Shown here in pieces: positions 1,866 through 45,817 of a stretch of 46,604 bases of DNA. Numbering within the stretch: position 1 is the first letter of the stretch; every line of letters starts with the position of its first letter. Position numbers and translations under genes: made by a program. The DNA comes from a virus (taxonomy: Duplodnaviria > Caudoviricetes): the IMG/VR virus record IMGVR_UViG_3300022173_000070, positions 1-46,604 of that record; one strand, written 5' to 3'. The notes beneath the pieces are model-generated. The model worked only from the letters and a program-made list of their open reading frames with translations. It was not told the DNA's origin and made no database searches.

Positions 1866-2590
1866 AAATCTGCTGGGCCTAACCCTTAATGGTACGGCAG
1901 ATTTCGCGTAGAAACGCTTGGATCAGGGCGGGGGCGAAGAAAGGAAGTCGCCTAGCGGCTCCGTTGTGTGGCCTTGTCCTACGCTGCGCTACGGAACGGC
2001 CGGGAAAATGCTCTCGCTGCGCTCGGCAGTTGTTGACGTTTTGCCCTGCTCGGCGCAGACCGGATGGTGAGGGGGTGGTGGTTCGGGCAAAACTCGCCCA
2101 AGAACCTAGAAATTCCAGGGCAGTTAAACCCGAGGGCCAGACCGGACGGAGCCGGGGTATGGAGCCAATCGGGATGGGATTAGAGGGGGTTCCTCCCACT
2201 GCCAAGGTTACGACACACCGCGCCGCCGATTCTCGCCCTTGGCCAACGGTTTGGATGGCGATGCGCCCGAGGGAATACCCCAACCTAGACGCCCTGCAAA
2301 TCCTTAAACCGCAACTCGTTGCGATGTGGCTGGGAATCGATCCCCCGGTAGCCACCCAATCACCGAATACACGCCGTCGTCGCTGCACCTTCCACCCGTG
2401 TATTGCGGTGGATCATCGGTTAGCGAAACGCCATCAAGAGCTTGTCTAGGGGGACTGATCCCAGTAGAATGTCCAGACGGTTCACGCCATCCCCGCGAAA
2501 GAGATAGTCCCGTGATCCAGTGACCAGCGGCCCTTGCAGGGGCGGCTGGTCGGCCAAAGCCCGCTTATGCGGGCTTTGTGCTTTGTTAGG
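1866..2590 (+). ncRNA. Candidate large structured non-coding RNA (~700 nt), family unknown; strand tentative
   Basis: No credible CDS; at least ten stems found by eye, including long-range 1956-1964/2146-2154 (9 bp perfect), 2361-2373/2397-2410 and 2247-2256/2300-2311; ends in a terminator-like hairpin. Confidence 0.55.
2555..2587 (+). terminator. Intrinsic terminator-like hairpin
   Basis: CAAAGCCCGC-TTAT-GCGGGCTTTG followed by TGCTTTGTT. Confidence 0.65.
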
Positions 2591-2671
2591 CCGTGAGATT
2601 AGCGGCAAAATCACATCTGCTCAATAGGTTAGCCAACAATCTTGCGATTGTTTGGGGGAACTTTCGGTAAA

Positions 2672-2744: not shown

Positions 2745-2993
2745 ATGAAAACCGCTCTGATCTGCCTGTCTGCCGTCCTTTGCCTGTCCGCCTGTTCAAA
2801 CGATCCCGTCACTAATTACCAATGGGCGCAATTCGCCAATGGTCTAAGCGCGGCGGCTGGTCAGCAGCAAGCGGATGCAGACGCCGCGTTCTACTACCGG
2901 CAGCAGCAGTTGCAGCAAGCGAATCAGGCTCAGCAGTTGCAGGAAATCAGCGACCGGATGCCCCCTGCGGCAAATTCCAGCGGCTGGTGGTAG
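2745..2993 (+). CDS. Small lipoprotein (82 aa), moron-like
   Basis: GGAGG RBS; signal peptide MKTALICLSAVLC with lipobox LSAC; opposite strand to flanking structural genes. Confidence 0.8.
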   Translation: MKTALICLSAVLCLSACSNDPVTNYQWAQFANGLSAAAGQQQADADAAFYYRQQQLQQANQAQQLQEISDRMPPAANSSGWW

Positions 2994-3146: not shown

Positions 3147-5366
3147 TTAGCCCATCGGGTTGCCTTGCGCCATCGAAACGACATTGCCTGGAGTGGTCGG
3201 CGGCATGTTGGTTTGCTGCGTAGCGCCCGGCCCCATGCTGCTACCAGCCGGGGGCTTTTGTGCGTTGTTCGCGCCCTGCGCCCCTTGCTGATTTGGGTCC
3301 GTGCCCGGTGCGCCCATGCCCGGTTGGACTTGCTGGTTAAGCGCTGTGATCGATGGCAACGACTGCGCAACGGCGTCCGTCGTGTCGATCCGGTCGTCCA
3401 AACGCTGCACCACTTGCTCGGCCAGCCACTGCGGTTTGATCCCCGGAATCTGCATCAGCAATGGCGCGAGACGCTCCATGTTCTGAATTTCCGCGGCCTT
3501 GTTTGGGCGTCCGCTGGAGCCGGCTTTGATATTGAGGGTCAAGTCCTGGGCAACTTGTTCGTTGCTCAGTTCGGGCCAAACTGCACCTGGACCTGCAATG
3601 CGGGTCACTTCCTCGGGCGACATTTCCAGCAGCAAAACGTGGCTGGCAGCCTTGGCCATTTCCGTCAGGAAGTCGTCCAAGTCATCGACGTTAGAGCCCT
3701 GCGCGGTCATCCGGCTGGACTCGGCAATACTCGATTCCGTGGCCGTCGAGCCACTGGTGCCGCCCAAGTTCGCCTCTTGCGTGCCCACCACTTTCAGCAA
3801 GTCGGAGAAACACGAATCGACCTCGTACAACGCTGGATCGACCGGACTGTACGGCACGCGCTGCAAGACCGAATCAATCGACGTACCGGGCACCATGCCG
3901 GATAACTCGACGACGGTGTGCGCGGCGGACGCCGTAAGATTGGCTTTGTCCTGCTCGTCGAGCAAACCTTTCGGCACGGCATGTTTCGGCCGGGCAGCGT
4001 CCAAATGCTCGCGCAACCGCTGACGGCGCAAGTTGTAGTCGACTTGCATGCCGCGCATCAGATGCACGTCCGATGGCGGGAAAATCGCGTCTTCGTCTTC
4101 GGCGTCGTTGAAGGTCAACACGAACCATGGCCAGAAGTTTTCGAGGCGCAGCGGCGGCGCGGCTGGCGGCACGATGAACGACGGAAACCCTGCACAGAGC
4201 GTCATGCAAGTGCCGGTGGCTTTGTCGTACAGCTCGTAAATCGCGCACAAGTCGCCCTGGCTGCGCTTGTCTTCTGGCCCGTAAAGCAGGGTATTCGTGC
4301 TGGCCGACTCGCCTTCGGACGTGTGCGAGTTGTAGTTGCTGGCCACGTCGACGCCGTAGATTTCTTTCACGTCGTCGCATGACAGCATGTATTCCTGCGC
4401 CACCCAACGAGCGCCGACGAAGCCTTTCAACTGGCGGCACCGCGGGTCAACGATCAACGATGTCGAAGGCGGGAATTCGAAGTCCAGCCCTTCTTTCACC
4501 AGCATGTCGGGCTCGCTGTTCGCGGCGGCGGACATGCGCAGCAACTCTTCGGATTGAGGGTCGCTTTGCTCGATGCTACCTTGTGCTTGCTCCAGGCCGA
4601 TGCGCTCAGCCCGGCGAAGGGGCTGGGTTGCGTCAGTGATCTTGTCCACGTCGCCGGGTAGTTTCTCCATAAACCGGTGGTAGCCCAGTTTCGTGTAACC
4701 CACGCCTGTGGTGATGGTCCGGCGCACCAGTTGTTTCATGCTGGTTTTGAACGGCACCGCCTGCTCGCCAATCTCGTATTCGTAGACAATTTCGAGCGTC
4801 TTGCCCATCTTGTCGGCCTGCACCCGGCGCGTCATGCCTTGCTGAACGTCCTGCAAAACCATGTTCGCCATCTGCAACATCTGCGGATCAGGCGGCGGCG
4901 TGCCGGGGATCAATTGCCCAGTTTGCGGGTCCATGGTGTCCGGCTGTGGCGGCATCAGCGCCTGCTTAAACGGCTCCAGGGATTCCAGCGAACCATCCCA
5001 AATCTTGAAGTCCAGGGTCTTGCGCCGCACGGCAATCGCGGTCGGGTTTTTCGCGTACAGCACCGCCACTTTCTGGTTCACAGCGCGCAGCGTGATGTTC
5101 GCCACGTAGCGCTGATCCTCGGGCGTTTGCTGGGGCCATTGCTCGCCATGGGCAAACTTCTGGTCTGCTTTCATCCGCTTGAACACGGGCGCCCATTGCG
5201 CCTTGGCCTTGCGGATTCGGGCAGTCCACTGCTTGACCAAGGCCGCTTCTGCCTCGCTCGGGCTTGGCGCTTGCGGCACGCCCTGCGCGGGTTTCGGCTG
5301 GCCCTCGGGACCGCCTTCACCATTCATTTCGCCCGGCATCAGGGGGCTTTGGTCGTCGTCCAACAT
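3147..5366 (-). CDS. Portal protein (739 aa)
   Basis: Immediately after terL; podovirus-portal size with Gln/Pro-rich tail; AAGGAG RBS before MLDDDQ at 5366. Confidence 0.85.
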   Translation of the reverse strand: MLDDDQSPLMPGEMNGEGGPEGQPKPAQGVPQAPSPSEAEAALVKQWTARIRKAKAQWAPVFKRMKADQKFAHGEQWPQQTPEDQRYVANITLRAVNQKVAVLYAKNPTAIAVRRKTLDFKIWDGSLESLEPFKQALMPPQPDTMDPQTGQLIPGTPPPDPQMLQMANMVLQDVQQGMTRRVQADKMGKTLEIVYEYEIGEQAVPFKTSMKQLVRRTITTGVGYTKLGYHRFMEKLPGDVDKITDATQPLRRAERIGLEQAQGSIEQSDPQSEELLRMSAAANSEPDMLVKEGLDFEFPPSTSLIVDPRCRQLKGFVGARWVAQEYMLSCDDVKEIYGVDVASNYNSHTSEGESASTNTLLYGPEDKRSQGDLCAIYELYDKATGTCMTLCAGFPSFIVPPAAPPLRLENFWPWFVLTFNDAEDEDAIFPPSDVHLMRGMQVDYNLRRQRLREHLDAARPKHAVPKGLLDEQDKANLTASAAHTVVELSGMVPGTSIDSVLQRVPYSPVDPALYEVDSCFSDLLKVVGTQEANLGGTSGSTATESSIAESSRMTAQGSNVDDLDDFLTEMAKAASHVLLLEMSPEEVTRIAGPGAVWPELSNEQVAQDLTLNIKAGSSGRPNKAAEIQNMERLAPLLMQIPGIKPQWLAEQVVQRLDDRIDTTDAVAQSLPSITALNQQVQPGMGAPGTDPNQQGAQGANNAQKPPAGSSMGPGATQQTNMPPTTPGNVVSMAQGNPMG

Positions 5367-5376
5367 AATCGCTCCT

Positions 5377-19267: not shown

Positions 19268-19900
19268 TTAGTCGTCGCGCTTCGGCCAGAAGACAGACGG
19301 GTCATATCCAGGGCGGGACTTGGCTTCTTTGTCTTCGGCTGTCTCAGGGCGCCGCGCAATCCAGCCGCTCGGCACGTCGTCCCCGGTTGTCAGCCGTAGG
19401 TATTCGGCGTGTGCCTCGGTCGGGTCGCTGTAGCAATAGCGCCGTTTGTACGGCGTGACTGCTTGCACGCCGATAAACAGCCCGGTGGTAAACGCCAGCC
19501 GGCCGAGGGCGACATAGGTGCCGTCGTCCAGCCGTCGCCAGCACTTAAAGAGGTTGTCCGGGTTTTCTAGCTCCCGTTCAATATCCTCGTCCCGGTTAGC
19601 CGCGGGTGCCTCCCGCGCCTGCACTAGCGCGAGTAAAGCATTCCAGCGCGCAATCCCGGCCAGCGTCATCGCTGACAACTGAATGACGTGTTCACCCTCT
19701 AGCGCTGGCGTGGCTTCGGGGATGGCGCGTAGCTGATCGATGTACAAAGACAGTGTTGTCTCTATCGCGTCCACCGCTTCGCTGACGGCGTGCGCCCGGT
19801 CATCGCCGTAGCTGTTCAGCTCGGGCAGGTCGCGGCACAACACCGCAACCCCCACAGCGTCCTGCTCAAAGCGAATCGCATAGGCGTAGCGGTCAGCCAT
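19268..19900 (-). CDS. HicB-like antitoxin domain fused to an unknown C-terminal domain
   Basis: YAIRFEQDAVGVAVLCRDLPELNSYGDDRAHAVSEAVDAIETTLSLYID...IP is a HicB N-domain; no HTH; no hicA nearby. Confidence 0.8.
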   Translation of the reverse strand: MADRYAYAIRFEQDAVGVAVLCRDLPELNSYGDDRAHAVSEAVDAIETTLSLYIDQLRAIPEATPALEGEHVIQLSAMTLAGIARWNALLALVQAREAPAANRDEDIERELENPDNLFKCWRRLDDGTYVALGRLAFTTGLFIGVQAVTPYKRRYCYSDPTEAHAEYLRLTTGDDVPSGWIARRPETAEDKEAKSRPGYDPSVFWPKRDD

Positions 19901-21484: not shown

Positions 21485-21901
21485 TTAAGCAGCGGTATCC
21501 GGGGTACGCCATTTTAGCACTTCATCTTTCCCGTACTGGCTGATCCACTCTTGAACCTCTTTTTTCAGAATGTTCGCGGTCCGTACAACGTCGCCCGTGT
21601 GCGGGTTGGTGAAGAGGTAGTACAGGTTCGGCTTGCCCGTCTTGCTGGCGTGGGCGCTCTCGCCCTTCGGCGCTTTGCTGTACGTGCGCTTCTGCCCGGC
21701 CTCGACAACGCGAAACGACGGATCAACCACTTGCGCGGCTTCGTGGATGGTCTTGTCGAATTTGGCCAGCAGCGCTTGCAACTCCTGTTCAAACTCAAGC
21801 TCGCGTTTCAGCGCCGGGTCGCCTTGCAGTTGCTGCATGCCGGCTTCCAGCTCGCGCATCTTTTTCTGCATTTCGCGCATCTGAACGAGGGGGTTAGTCA
21901 T
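21485..21901 (-). CDS. mvaT: MvaT/MvaU-family H-NS-like protein
   Basis: LKRELEFEQELQALLAKF...DP oligomerisation region and NPHTGDVVRT...EW..QYG...V..W C-domain. Confidence 0.88.
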   Translation of the reverse strand: MTNPLVQMREMQKKMRELEAGMQQLQGDPALKRELEFEQELQALLAKFDKTIHEAAQVVDPSFRVVEAGQKRTYSKAPKGESAHASKTGKPNLYYLFTNPHTGDVVRTANILKKEVQEWISQYGKDEVLKWRTPDTAA

Positions 21902-21928: not shown

Positions 21929-22150
21929 TTATGGGTAAACGCGTTTGAAGCTGGCGGTCGTGTACCAGCAGAGCGTGGCGTGCAGGTAGATCATGTTTCC
22001 GGGGGCACGCGAGTTGTACATGCGGAAATCCACGGAGGCTTGCGGCTTGCTGATCCCGAAAAAGTCGACCAATTGCTTAGGGGCCACAGAGCCGTAATTT
22101 GCCAGAAGAAAGTCGATCATCCTTAAACGCTGTTCAATGGCGTAGGTCAC
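21929..22150 (-). CDS. Stand-alone CapW-type winged HTH (no WYL domain)
   Basis: QRLRMIDFLL..YG.V....LVDFFGISKPQASVDFRMY...APGNM.Y resembles the N-terminal wHTH of CapW-like WYL repressors. Confidence 0.75.
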   Translation of the reverse strand: MTYAIEQRLRMIDFLLANYGSVAPKQLVDFFGISKPQASVDFRMYNSRAPGNMIYLHATLCWYTTASFKRVYP

Positions 22151-23310
22151 AAGAGGGGTTCCATAGTTGTGCTTATTGGTTTGCGGAAGTTGACCGCATT
22201 AACTAAGTGGTCAGGGGTATGGTGCAGATAGTTGCGCTGGCAAACAGCGGCAGAGTTGCCCAAAACGCCCGCGATGTTGATGATGGGAACGCCTGCCCGT
22301 GCCATCAAGGTGGCAGTAGTGTGGCGCATTACGTGCGGAGTCAAATCGCGGAACTTCTCGTTGCCGGTTGCCTTGAAGGCACGACGGCAAAGCGTCTCAA
22401 ATGCCCCTGACGGTTCGGTCGCCTCGTCCAGCACGTACTGGGTTTTGCGTTCCTCATACGCTCTCTGTAAGAGAGGTATAAGCCAGTCAGCGATAGGGAC
22501 AGCCACGACCTTTTTAGAGGACGTTTGTGCGCCCTTCTTCTGCGCGGCTTTTGGGTAATAGATACGGCACGCGGTCAGGTCTACGTCGTCCCATTCCAGC
22601 CGCACAATGGCCGACTTGCGCGCTGCTGTGCCAAGAGCCAGGGCAACGAATCGCCAGATGCGGGACATGCGGCCTTCGTCGTCTTCCCAGCGCACGAACT
22701 CTAACAGCCAGTCGTGTTCGGCCTCAGTCAGCCACACGTCATTGCCTTCTGGAGCGTCGGGCATGTCGAAGTGCGGCAAGGCATTGGCTGGGATGCGCTG
22801 GTGCTTCGCGGCGTAGTTAAACGCAGTCACCAGGGCATTCATTTCGTAGCGTAGTGTCCCCTCGCCAGCCTCACGCACGGGGTTCGCCGTGGCACGTCCC
22901 GCGTAGACCGGGGCTGTCGCGGAGCGTCTAGCCTGCAGGTATTGCTGTAACACCGCGGGGTTGCGTTGCAGCGTGCTTACGGGCAAATGTCCCAAACTGG
23001 CGCGTAGCCAGCCAAGGGCCAAGTCGCGCCGCACGACGTCATTCGCTTTGGTACTGACGTGCTGTTCACTGTAGTAGTCGAACACTGCCCCTACGGTTAA
23101 CAGCTCTCTGTTTCCCTCACCAGTGAGAGAGAGACGGTATCTCTCTAACGCCTCTTTCGCCTGTCCCTCGTCCTTTGTCTTGGTAGAGAGCCGCGTGGTC
23201 GTGCCATCGCCCGGAGAATGGCAGATACGCCACACACCGCTATCTAGCTTCTGTAGCCAAGGTTGCCCGTCGCGGTTGCGTGTGCGGGGAGTCGAGGGAG
23301 ACTTTTTCAT
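22147..23310 (-). CDS. int: Tyrosine recombinase/integrase
   Basis: TAARKSAIVRLEWDDVD (catalytic R), HVMRH (HxxR), LGN, catalytic Tyr in NYLH. Confidence 0.92.
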   Translation of the reverse strand: MKKSPSTPRTRNRDGQPWLQKLDSGVWRICHSPGDGTTTRLSTKTKDEGQAKEALERYRLSLTGEGNRELLTVGAVFDYYSEQHVSTKANDVVRRDLALGWLRASLGHLPVSTLQRNPAVLQQYLQARRSATAPVYAGRATANPVREAGEGTLRYEMNALVTAFNYAAKHQRIPANALPHFDMPDAPEGNDVWLTEAEHDWLLEFVRWEDDEGRMSRIWRFVALALGTAARKSAIVRLEWDDVDLTACRIYYPKAAQKKGAQTSSKKVVAVPIADWLIPLLQRAYEERKTQYVLDEATEPSGAFETLCRRAFKATGNEKFRDLTPHVMRHTTATLMARAGVPIINIAGVLGNSAAVCQRNYLHHTPDHLVNAVNFRKPISTTMEPLL

Positions 23311-25915: not shown

Positions 25916-25978
25916 ATGTCCATTTGTCCAAATGTCCACTAGACACTTGTACAAATGTCCATTTGTCCAAATGTACAA
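25916..25978. repeat. Octamer array 4 (7 units plus a 7-bp spacer)
   Basis: ATGTCCAT TTGTCCAA ATGTCCAC tagacac TTGTACAA ATGTCCAT TTGTCCAA ATGTACAA. Confidence 0.9.
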
Positions 25979-27704: not shown

Positions 27705-27728
27705 ATGTACAAATGTACAATTGTCCAG
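27705..27728. repeat. Octamer array 5 (3 units)
   Basis: ATGTACAA ATGTACAA TTGTCCAG. Confidence 0.8.
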
Positions 27729-28318: not shown

Positions 28319-28342
28319 TTGTACATTTGTACATTTGTACAG
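28319..28342. repeat. Octamer array 6 (3 units)
   Basis: TTGTACAT TTGTACAT TTGTACAG. Confidence 0.85.
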
Positions 28343-30569: not shown

Positions 30570-31196
30570 ATGGCCCAAAAAGTTTGGTGCGTTGTTAGTC
30601 AAAAAGGAGGCGTCAGCAAATCGGTTATCGCCTATGCGCTGTCGGAAAAGCTGGCGACGCCCGGCGTTAAAGTCGTGTTGTGCGATACCGACTTTCCCCA
30701 GTTTTCGGCGCTCACGCTGGCCGAGCTGCGCGAGCAACACGGCGGCGAGCCATTGCCGTTCAAGGTAGTGTCGTGCAAGGACACGGGCGAAGTCGGCCGC
30801 AAGTCGAAAGGCTTTCACCATGTCGTTATCGACGGCGCCCCGCATGCCAGCCAGGACACGTACCACTATGCCAAATACGCCGACGTGGTGATCCTGCCAA
30901 CCCGCACCGCAATCATCGACCTGACGCCCAACCTAGAACTGGCCCGCAGTCTGGAAGCCCGCGGCATTGCTCGCGACAAGATGGTTTTCGTGCTGACGCA
31001 ATCGCCAAGCAAGACGGAAACGGCGACGGCGCGCACCATCTTGCAGTACGAAGGCTGGGCAGTGCTGGAGCAGGATTTGCACTTCGCGCAGAGCTTTTCA
31101 ACGGCGGGGGATCGCGGACGGACCATCAGTGAAGTGAAGCACCGGGGGCTGCGCTACAAAGCCGGCATGCTGCTAGAGCAGCTTCTGCGCCGGTAA
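30570..31196 (+). CDS. parA: ParA-family partition ATPase (short, type Ib-like)
   Basis: SQKGGVSKS, LCDTDFPQ, VVIDGAP and ADVVILP motifs; 208 aa without an N-terminal HTH. Confidence 0.9.
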   Translation: MAQKVWCVVSQKGGVSKSVIAYALSEKLATPGVKVVLCDTDFPQFSALTLAELREQHGGEPLPFKVVSCKDTGEVGRKSKGFHHVVIDGAPHASQDTYHYAKYADVVILPTRTAIIDLTPNLELARSLEARGIARDKMVFVLTQSPSKTETATARTILQYEGWAVLEQDLHFAQSFSTAGDRGRTISEVKHRGLRYKAGMLLEQLLRR

Positions 31197-45785: not shown

Positions 45786-45817
45786 CTGCACGTTTGGACA
45801 ATTGGACATTTGTACAT
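45786..45817. repeat. Octamer array 9 (4 units)
   Basis: CTGCACGT TTGGACAA TTGGACAT TTGTACAT directly after the capsid stop. Confidence 0.85.

Follow-up and report, generated by a model that had tools for sequence, protein, structure and literature searches.

The window, by which we mean the whole stretch of 46,604 nucleotides analysed, is the genome of a temperate podophage, ~46.5 kb in size; positions 3-128 recur as its final 126 nt, and with this overlap of its ends the assembly is regarded as circular. Comparison with PHROGs and Pfam identified genes for terminase, portal, capsid, lysis, a family-A DNA polymerase, a primase-helicase, a tyrosine recombinase and ParA, the last matching the partition function expected of a plasmid prophage. 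An MvaT-type domain and matches to plasmids, set out below, point to a Pseudomonas host. Phage-plasmids, as characterised in the account of Pfeifer 2021 (PMC7969092), combine virion genes with plasmid replication and partition functions; of these, the window shows virion genes and ParA, and its assembly is circular. Inside its head module, between the portal gene and the probable scaffold gene, lies the structured region considered here (Table 1).

Table 1. Coordinates in the window of the predicted parts of the element and of the surrounding features.
Feature	Position	Strand	Details
Probable scaffold gene	400-1476	minus	
Cysteine-rich ORF, 81 aa	1604-1849	minus	one homologue, 63%
Separate hairpin just upstream of the small variable ORF	1866..1904	minus	z -2.92; outer stem kept in sister phage L001
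14-nt motif, candidate primosome-assembly (pas/ssi-like) signal	2013..2026	minus	blastn 14/14, E 0.043, to ColE1-type plasmid L061
Predicted long RNA, RNA II-like pre-primer	2057..2589	minus	~450-535 nt; 3' end approximate
Most conserved body block	2140..2170	minus	29/31 nt identical in L001
Candidate folding-switch segment	2409..2419	minus	pairs with 2510-2519 or joins the 2412-2359 hairpin
Predicted antisense promoter P_I	2442..2470	+	-35 TTGTCT, 17 nt, -10 TAGAAT
Predicted antisense RNA, RNA I-like	2476..2586	+	~110 nt; three stem-loops, the last a terminator; z -4.13
Intrinsic terminator hairpin of the antisense RNA	2555..2578	+	
Predicted promoter P_II (long RNA)	2596..2624	minus	-35 TTGAGC 2624-2619, 17-nt spacer, -10 TAATCT 2601-2596
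Glutamine-rich, lipoprotein-like small ORF	2745-2993	+	
Portal gene	3147-5369	minus	
Integrase-type gene (tyrosine recombinase)	22147-23310		
ParA-type ATPase gene	30570..31196	+	PHROGs and Pfam; small unannotated ORF behind

Several features of the surroundings deserve record in their own right. The lipoprotein-like ORF is kept in the sister phage L001 (79%) and in two further relatives, L002 (99%) and L005 (47%); it finds no convincing family, and may be a superinfection-exclusion moron. The hairpin at the other flank is probably not part of the long RNA described below, and is possibly a terminator or a translation-control hairpin. Arrays of an 8-bp repeat, TG(G/T/A)ACA(A/T)(A/T), stand upstream of several operons, including those of scaffold, portal and parA (1508-1545, 5423, 12199, 25930-25977, 27706-27727, 28320-28341, 30486 and 45795-45803), and may serve as partition sites or as operators for a single phage regulator. 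The early region encodes an MvaT-type DNA-binding domain protein and a HicB-like protein (21485-21901 and 19268-19900), and a palindromic motif at 2668-2700 resembles one upstream of the rep origin in relatives L005-L012, making it a possible shared operator.

The original prediction placed a structured, possibly undescribed non-coding RNA at 1866-2590, and it was borne out in so far as the element is non-coding, structured and without an Rfam family. Every stem arm that it listed was found in place and complementary to its partner, and no Rfam family scored up to its cut-off at any position of the window; between 1500 and 3200 the search gave 11 matches at E<=10, none of them convincing. The judgement that the region holds no credible gene was likewise confirmed: the ORFs at 1879-2388 and 1889-2449 (169 and 186 codons) have no tblastn match in relatives, no PHROG match and no homologue, and L001 carries frameshifting indels there; of the ORFs with at least 12 aa, just two have a positional counterpart in L001, and in each of these 3 of 18-19 residues are identical. 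Folding energy upheld the claim in part, with z of -1.46 on the plus and -3.39 on the minus strand across 1860-2600 (20 shuffles each). This signal is due to 2460-2620 and not to the body of the element: scanned in segments of 120 nt, the element reaches z below -3 at 2460-2620 only, and its body by itself (2050-2441) does no better than shuffles (z -1.24 on the minus strand, +0.86 on the plus).

Comparison with L001 (71.6% identical to the window over 1180 aligned nt; portal 93% identical) gives stronger evidence than energy and does support the structure as real. In seven of the predicted stems, all picked independently of L001, both partners have changed at 16 pairs, and 11 of these are still Watson-Crick pairs (background 0.357, p=0.007); two-sided changes in paired columns number 11, against 0-2 when partners are slid by 1-3 columns; for the body this covariation is drawn from two sequences, and pairs within one helix are not independent. 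The element is kept in L001 from the promoter to 2057, at ~72% identity and with frameshifting indels, and its conserved core is 2057-2624 rather than the 1866-2590 first proposed. The large enclosing stem 1956-1964/2146-2154 fell outside what is shared, its 5' arm being absent from L001. At these two segments part of the most conserved block has a perfect copy in inverted orientation, which the window has and L001 lacks; a read-through RNA could sequester that block. Two long-range complements that were not in the original list of stems, 2154-2160/2275-2281 and 2073-2078/2392-2397, show no change when aligned with L001, with a one-base insertion adjoining each, and would join conserved G-rich loops to C-rich 3' blocks.

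Two opposed promoter-like sites divide the element between strands. The hexamers and spacing of P_II, whose transcript is predicted to start near 2589, are identical in the window, L001 and L002, with a spacer sequence that varies; a consensus promoter scan missed the site. In L002 it lies upstream of, and on the same strand as, an RNA of the PAGEV family (RF03037). P_I was the sole plus-strand match of the same scan, and its 17-nt spacing and TAGAAT box are kept in L001 and L002, with CAGAAT at the same place in plasmids that carry PAGEV. To judge from P_II and from the orientation that PAGEV has in L002 and the plasmids, the minus strand is the most likely one for the long RNA; this RNA would contain covarying hairpins at 2410-2361, 2355-2326, 2311-2247 and 2243-2201, and its first 110 nt are complementary to the predicted short RNA. 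Only the last ~110 nt of the element look like a plus-strand transcript, with a promoter of their own, three hairpins and a terminator whose substitutions preserve pairing on the plus strand alone: 2558 A>G (contigs X11 and X20) and 2556 A>G (L001) each make a G-U pair there and a mismatch on the minus strand. One long plus-strand RNA of the ornate GOLLD or ROOL kind is not supported.

Within the putative long RNA, segment 2409..2419 may act as a folding switch. All 10 pairs that it can make with 2510-2519, which lies within the stretch covered by the antisense RNA, are identical in L001; the computed switch is not clean, this pairing being well populated at one of six transcript lengths, and a clean alpha/beta/gamma switch was set aside as unsupported by computed folding. 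The most conserved body block is a candidate for the region of RNA-DNA switch, with the origin position inferred from the spacing to the 14-nt motif, a candidate pas. That motif matches L061 at 1845-1858, just downstream of the RNA II region of this ColE1-type plasmid and on the same strand, and its 11-nt core also occurs on the long-RNA strand of plasmids pA4J1 and pA22BJ2; the stretch 1941-2115 is kept in X11 and absent from L001, which lacks the pas-like motif. In the window and L001 the predicted long RNA has a C-rich 3' half (skew about -0.2), where ColE1-type and PAGEV plasmids are G-rich (+0.1 to +0.3; L061 +0.12 to +0.29); such a C-rich composition does not fit a standard R-loop. Resemblance to a CsrA sponge through GGA repeats was also considered and dropped, with just two copies of GACCGGAYGG noted.

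Closer relatives indicate that the predicted short RNA is still changing under constraint. Contig X20 shows three compensated pairs, all in one hairpin (2523/2550, 2525/2548 and 2528/2545), among 13 substitutions (2 of 200,000 permutations), and a further compensatory pair, 2524/2549, is common to contig X10 and L001; one pair is broken in each of X20 and X10. Seven listed changes fall in the 114 nt of the antisense region of X10 and none in the preceding 147 nt (p=0.003; for X20, p=0.06), and among close relatives the short-RNA region, including loop II, is the fastest-changing part. The contigs X20 and X10 have a depth below 5, and a single study is the source of both X11 and X20. The runs labelled as RNA (X11, X20 and X18) yield contigs whose longest records are 30-43 kb and are probably DNA. 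Two others, X8 and X9, cover only P_II and then continue into L002-type sequence.

The short RNA also provides the link to plasmids. The RNA body of L002 matches small Pseudomonas plasmids at 73% (best E 2e-11; 10 of 17 matches), and a covariance model, R1, built from the short RNAs of the window and L001 only, was searched against 399 kb from 37 sources, for which E-values are rough. Plasmid antisense units rank first among these sources: R1 finds full-length matches in L168 (twice), L165, L166, L167 and L169 (E 2.4e-8 to 9e-5) and in L002 (E 1e-3), against a best score of 16.6 bits in 97 control loci (327 kb). It gave no match to true ColE1 RNA I (L061 1217-1319) or to a truncated unit in plasmid pA62H2. 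Plain alignment of the short RNA to the plasmid units gave z of 5.5-8.1 for the window and 1.7-4.9 for L001. On this sequence evidence the predicted short RNA unit is homologous to the antisense units of five small Pseudomonas plasmids with PAGEV. The plasmids are laid out like the window, with a -10 box followed by three hairpins and a terminator. In each of the five PAGEV elements the PAGEV motif begins, on the opposite strand, 62-64 nt beyond the point where the antisense unit starts.

The likeness ends with this control unit. PAGEV (cut-off 61.1 bits) has no match in the window or L001 at E<=10, where the positive controls L002 and pLz4W score 69.5 and 110.6 bits, and the body at 2050-2441 compared with PAGEV bodies gives z about 0 and no profile match; a remote homology of the bodies, hinted at by short shared words, was rejected at that value. 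The plasmid link is confined to the 110-nt control unit and the genomic slot because no PLSDB or INPHARED record has a window-type body. The antisense unit of pLz4W (L165 1699-1812) weakly matches the Rfam ColE1 RNAI model (26.6 bits, E 0.012, below cut-off), which suggests that PAGEV may be part of a ColE1-like RNA II. According to Weinberg 2017 (PMC5737381), PAGEV lies in a predicted origin and its mechanism is unknown. The REP fragment that Romaniuk 2019 (PMC6896180) describe as cloned from pA22BJ2 (7384 to 1610) spans the antisense/PAGEV region, and such REP modules worked only in Pseudomonas by that account; the fragment also has a 135-aa ORF, named RepB by the authors. Four complete small plasmids have no Rep3_N. 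For the 135-aa ORF Pfam gives no Rep family, and neither pPMA4326D nor the window has it; its presence on the cloned fragment nevertheless weakens the argument that the RNA is sufficient. In pA62H2 (L174 1740-1850) a PAGEV-like region lies next to a parA operon, with an antisense unit that ends after the second loop into a tetranucleotide repeat and is apparently a relic.

What occupies the same slot in related phages bears directly on function. A portal search found 52 loci, 11 with portal identity of at least 64%, and nine of these reach the slot (L008 and L010 end early). Seven of the nine carry a Rep-type gene: Rep3 in L012 (128 bits); RepL above cut-off in L004 and just below it in L006 and L011; a protein in L007 assigned as RepL-like by the likeness of its start to L006; and, in L005 and L009, an HTH_36 protein behind iteron-like repeats, for which a Rep role is inferred. 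The remaining two are L001/L003, with the window-type element, and L002, with a portal 99% identical, where the PAGEV RNA stands behind the same promoter. The window itself is without a Rep of the families tested, with no Rep3_N, RepL or HTH_36 by profile search and no tblastn match to eight proteins from relatives and plasmids, including the Rep proteins of the relatives. In most of the distant loci found with the portal the scaffold gene follows soon after the portal, or structural genes lie between. The position of the element in the head module is explained by a swappable replicon slot: portal and scaffold adjoin directly in distant relatives, and Rep genes occupy the place in closer ones.

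ParA homologues occur in three of 43 records searched and in three of eight near-complete ones (at least 90% complete); these are the three complete Rep-bearing relatives, with none in the five other near-complete records. The recombinase is common to the window and the three Rep-bearing relatives (six of 11 records). Pfeifer 2021 (PMC7969092) notes such recombinases among phage-plasmids, as well as P1-like elements in which replicases are exchanged at a single position. Upstream of the rep origin, the Rep-bearing relatives share another conserved non-coding element, a few hundred nt long (L005 7380-7730, L007 6820-7170, L009, L011 7460-7810 and L012 7450-7800), with an invariant ~28-nt core, a terminator-like hairpin, a promoter-like site and no Rfam match; it is a candidate unknown small RNA.

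Outside L001, searches found no window-type body. Those by blastn of phages (INPHARED), plasmids (PLSDB, also with the L001 version) and E. coli genomes returned terminator-sized or other short matches; one, a 25-nt terminator match in L061, lies far from the RNA I of that plasmid and was dropped. Pattern scans of viral contigs gave 4, 84 and 1 stretches and those of metagenomes 17; every one of these either belonged to the L001 contig, the L002 contig or the contig of the window itself (L159, dropped) or was a chance match. A portal search of GTDB genomes found two distant loci only, a lipoprotein search the L001 and L002 contigs only, and PLSDB no close relative of the window; the CC-licensed PMC and bioRxiv literature described no RNA I/RNA II replicon in a Pseudomonas phage.

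Conservation, covarying stems, opposed promoter-like sites, homology to plasmids and slot exchange with Rep genes lead us to read the element as a plasmid replicon, and we put the probability at about 0.7 that it is an antisense-controlled, Rep-independent RNA replicon of a phage-plasmid. The predicted long minus-strand RNA would prime replication in a ColE1-like manner and the short plus-strand antisense RNA would limit copy number. P_II would make a 450-535-nt RNA from about 2589 leftwards, whose 3' part would stay hybridised to DNA near 2140-2057 and be extended by a Pol I-type polymerase, either the host's or the phage's family-A enzyme; the pas-like motif (2026-2013) would then load a primosome. 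The 110-nt antisense RNA would bind the nascent 5' loops, alter the fold and block priming, its fast-changing stems and loops would set incompatibility groups, and ParA would partition the circle. For the R-loop, RNase H and Pol I route specifically, the chances are about even. We advance more tentatively, as a doubtful proposal, that the element represents a new class of replication-primer RNA in which an antisense head shared with PAGEV is joined to an unrelated ~430-nt body, whose C-rich 3' end would keep the RNA-DNA hybrid in place in another way than ColE1 does. As speculation, the G-rich loops at 2283-2270 and 2397-2388 may capture the C-rich displaced strand at 2163-2151 and 2078-2066.

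Among other explanations, the one that survives best, and is still improbable, holds that a plasmid-derived replication element is now a relic or accessory, or acts as ssDNA, in a prophage kept by integration. The integrase-type gene and the C-rich 3' half would suit such a history, as would the cut-short antisense unit of pA62H2 and the suggestion in Weinberg 2017 (PMC5737381) that plasmid motifs could act as ssDNA. A relic would hardly be expected to show continuing compensatory change in close relatives or to keep both promoter-like sites and a strand-specific terminator, and the recombinase does not argue for integration alone because the Rep-bearing relatives share it; no Rep of the families tested was found in the window to accompany ParA. 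Less probable again is a reading in which the region serves the small ORF and the scaffold-capsid operon as a leader or attenuator under antisense control; P_II does point toward these genes, and a hairpin and ribosome-binding site stand ahead of the ORF at 1849 in both the window and L001. Several observations speak against it: the 81-aa ORF of the window gives way to a different short ORF in L001 and is replaced in X11, the next gene is convergent in pA4J1, the scaffold gene has its own promoter-like site and repeat array, and Rep-bearing and slot-less relatives do without the element.

GOLLD, ROOL and the phi29 pRNA are large or structured phage-associated RNAs, and a stand-alone ornate RNA of this type, with a head-assembly or decoy role, would agree with covarying stems over ~500 nt, the lack of an Rfam match and the position between portal and scaffold. 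We nevertheless consider this very unlikely. The loop-loop contacts on which the original prediction drew are not conserved: the GTTTT/AAAAC kiss has a duplex energy of -0.3 kcal/mol and its 2017-2058 hairpin has no counterpart in L001, and the CCTAGAC/GTCTAGG contact loses four of seven pairs in L001, its 3' arm overlapping a -35 box. The element is absent from relatives with 64-75% identical portals, it is replaced in L002 by an unrelated PAGEV body, and an internal predicted promoter splits the plus strand. A prohead RNA resembling pRNA, or a structured late leader, both suggested at the outset, found no support. A type I toxin-antitoxin pair, of which a sense/antisense layout is typical, or a protein-coding region, for which the two long ORFs might speak, may be largely dismissed, given the lack of any conserved small ORF or of any homologue of the long ones.

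If an RNA replicon is indeed present, RNA-based prophage origins would extend to a Pseudomonas-type phage-plasmid, with an RNA body absent from Rfam, and the PAGEV mechanism would gain a concrete RNA I/RNA II model. It would also explain some phage-plasmids that have ParA and no recognisable replicase and are missed by Rep-based screens. A slot that swaps Rep3, RepL and HTH-type proteins with two RNA types would be a natural experiment on the rise and recombination of protein-free origins, to which the window adds a non-PAGEV body and the exchange of Rep and RNA; natural loop alleles exist for incompatibility comparison, and a compact new origin could serve Pseudomonas vectors. These possibilities can be set against a short list of precedents: the 2011 MRB paper presented ColE1 as the only earlier RNA-initiated plasmid family (PMC3035462), and Wetzel 2020 described mycobacteriophage origins as the first RNA-based prophage systems (PMC7157519).

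Set beside the phage-associated RNAs, the window lacks an Rfam match to GOLLD, ROOL or pRNA, its loop-loop contacts are unconserved and its element is swapped for Rep genes in relatives. The nearest likeness is to the PAGEV plasmids (RF03037; pLz4W, pA4J1, pA22BJ2 and pPMA4326D), which have a homologous three-hairpin antisense unit with its promoter and terminator, whereas the long-RNA body of the window has neither match nor similarity to PAGEV and its 3' half is C-rich. ColE1, with an RNA II of ~550 nt and an RNA I of ~100 nt in the survey of Ares-Arroyo 2021 (PMC8683028), resembles it in predicted sizes, in the antisense overlap at the 5' end, in three stem-loops with a terminator, in having no Rep found, and in the 14-nt downstream motif shared with L061; the ColE1 primosome assembly site is described as lying downstream of the origin (PMC3167613). 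The window element differs in lacking an RF00106 match, in its z of 0.1 to L061 RNA I, in having no G-rich 3' tract and in residing on a 46.5-kb tailed phage with ParA. A G-rich primer 3' region that forms a persistent hybrid at the origin is a ColE1 feature, and its G-rich composition was checked on L061. Direct membership of ColE1 was rejected given the missing RF00106 match, the lack of RNA I homology and the C-rich 3' region; the ColE1 survey, for its part, places two plasmids only in Pseudomonadales and leaves distant variants open (PMC8683028).

The MRB origin, as Le Roux 2011 (PMC3035462) describe it, is an ORF-free region of ~500 bp with an RNA I and an RNA II, and one plasmid, pES213, has just the 110-bp RNA I core in common with the other members, its body being different, a parallel to the window and the PAGEV plasmids. 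By that description MRB RNA I has 68 nt and two hairpins, against ~110 nt and three hairpins in the window, and MRB plasmids are reported only from Vibrionaceae, setting them apart. Extrachromosomal mycobacterial prophages, in the account of Wetzel 2020 (PMC7157519), depend on a RepA gene or else on a non-coding RNA origin, together with a par system; the likeness lies in related temperate phages with a Rep gene or an RNA origin plus par. Compared by description, those prophages have actinobacterial hosts and an RNA next to parABS that replaces the integration cassette, whereas in the window the RNA lies between portal and scaffold, far from parA, and the recombinase is kept. By the tests run, the predicted element is a member of neither ColE1, MRB nor PAGEV, and likely works like a ColE1 or MRB replicon.
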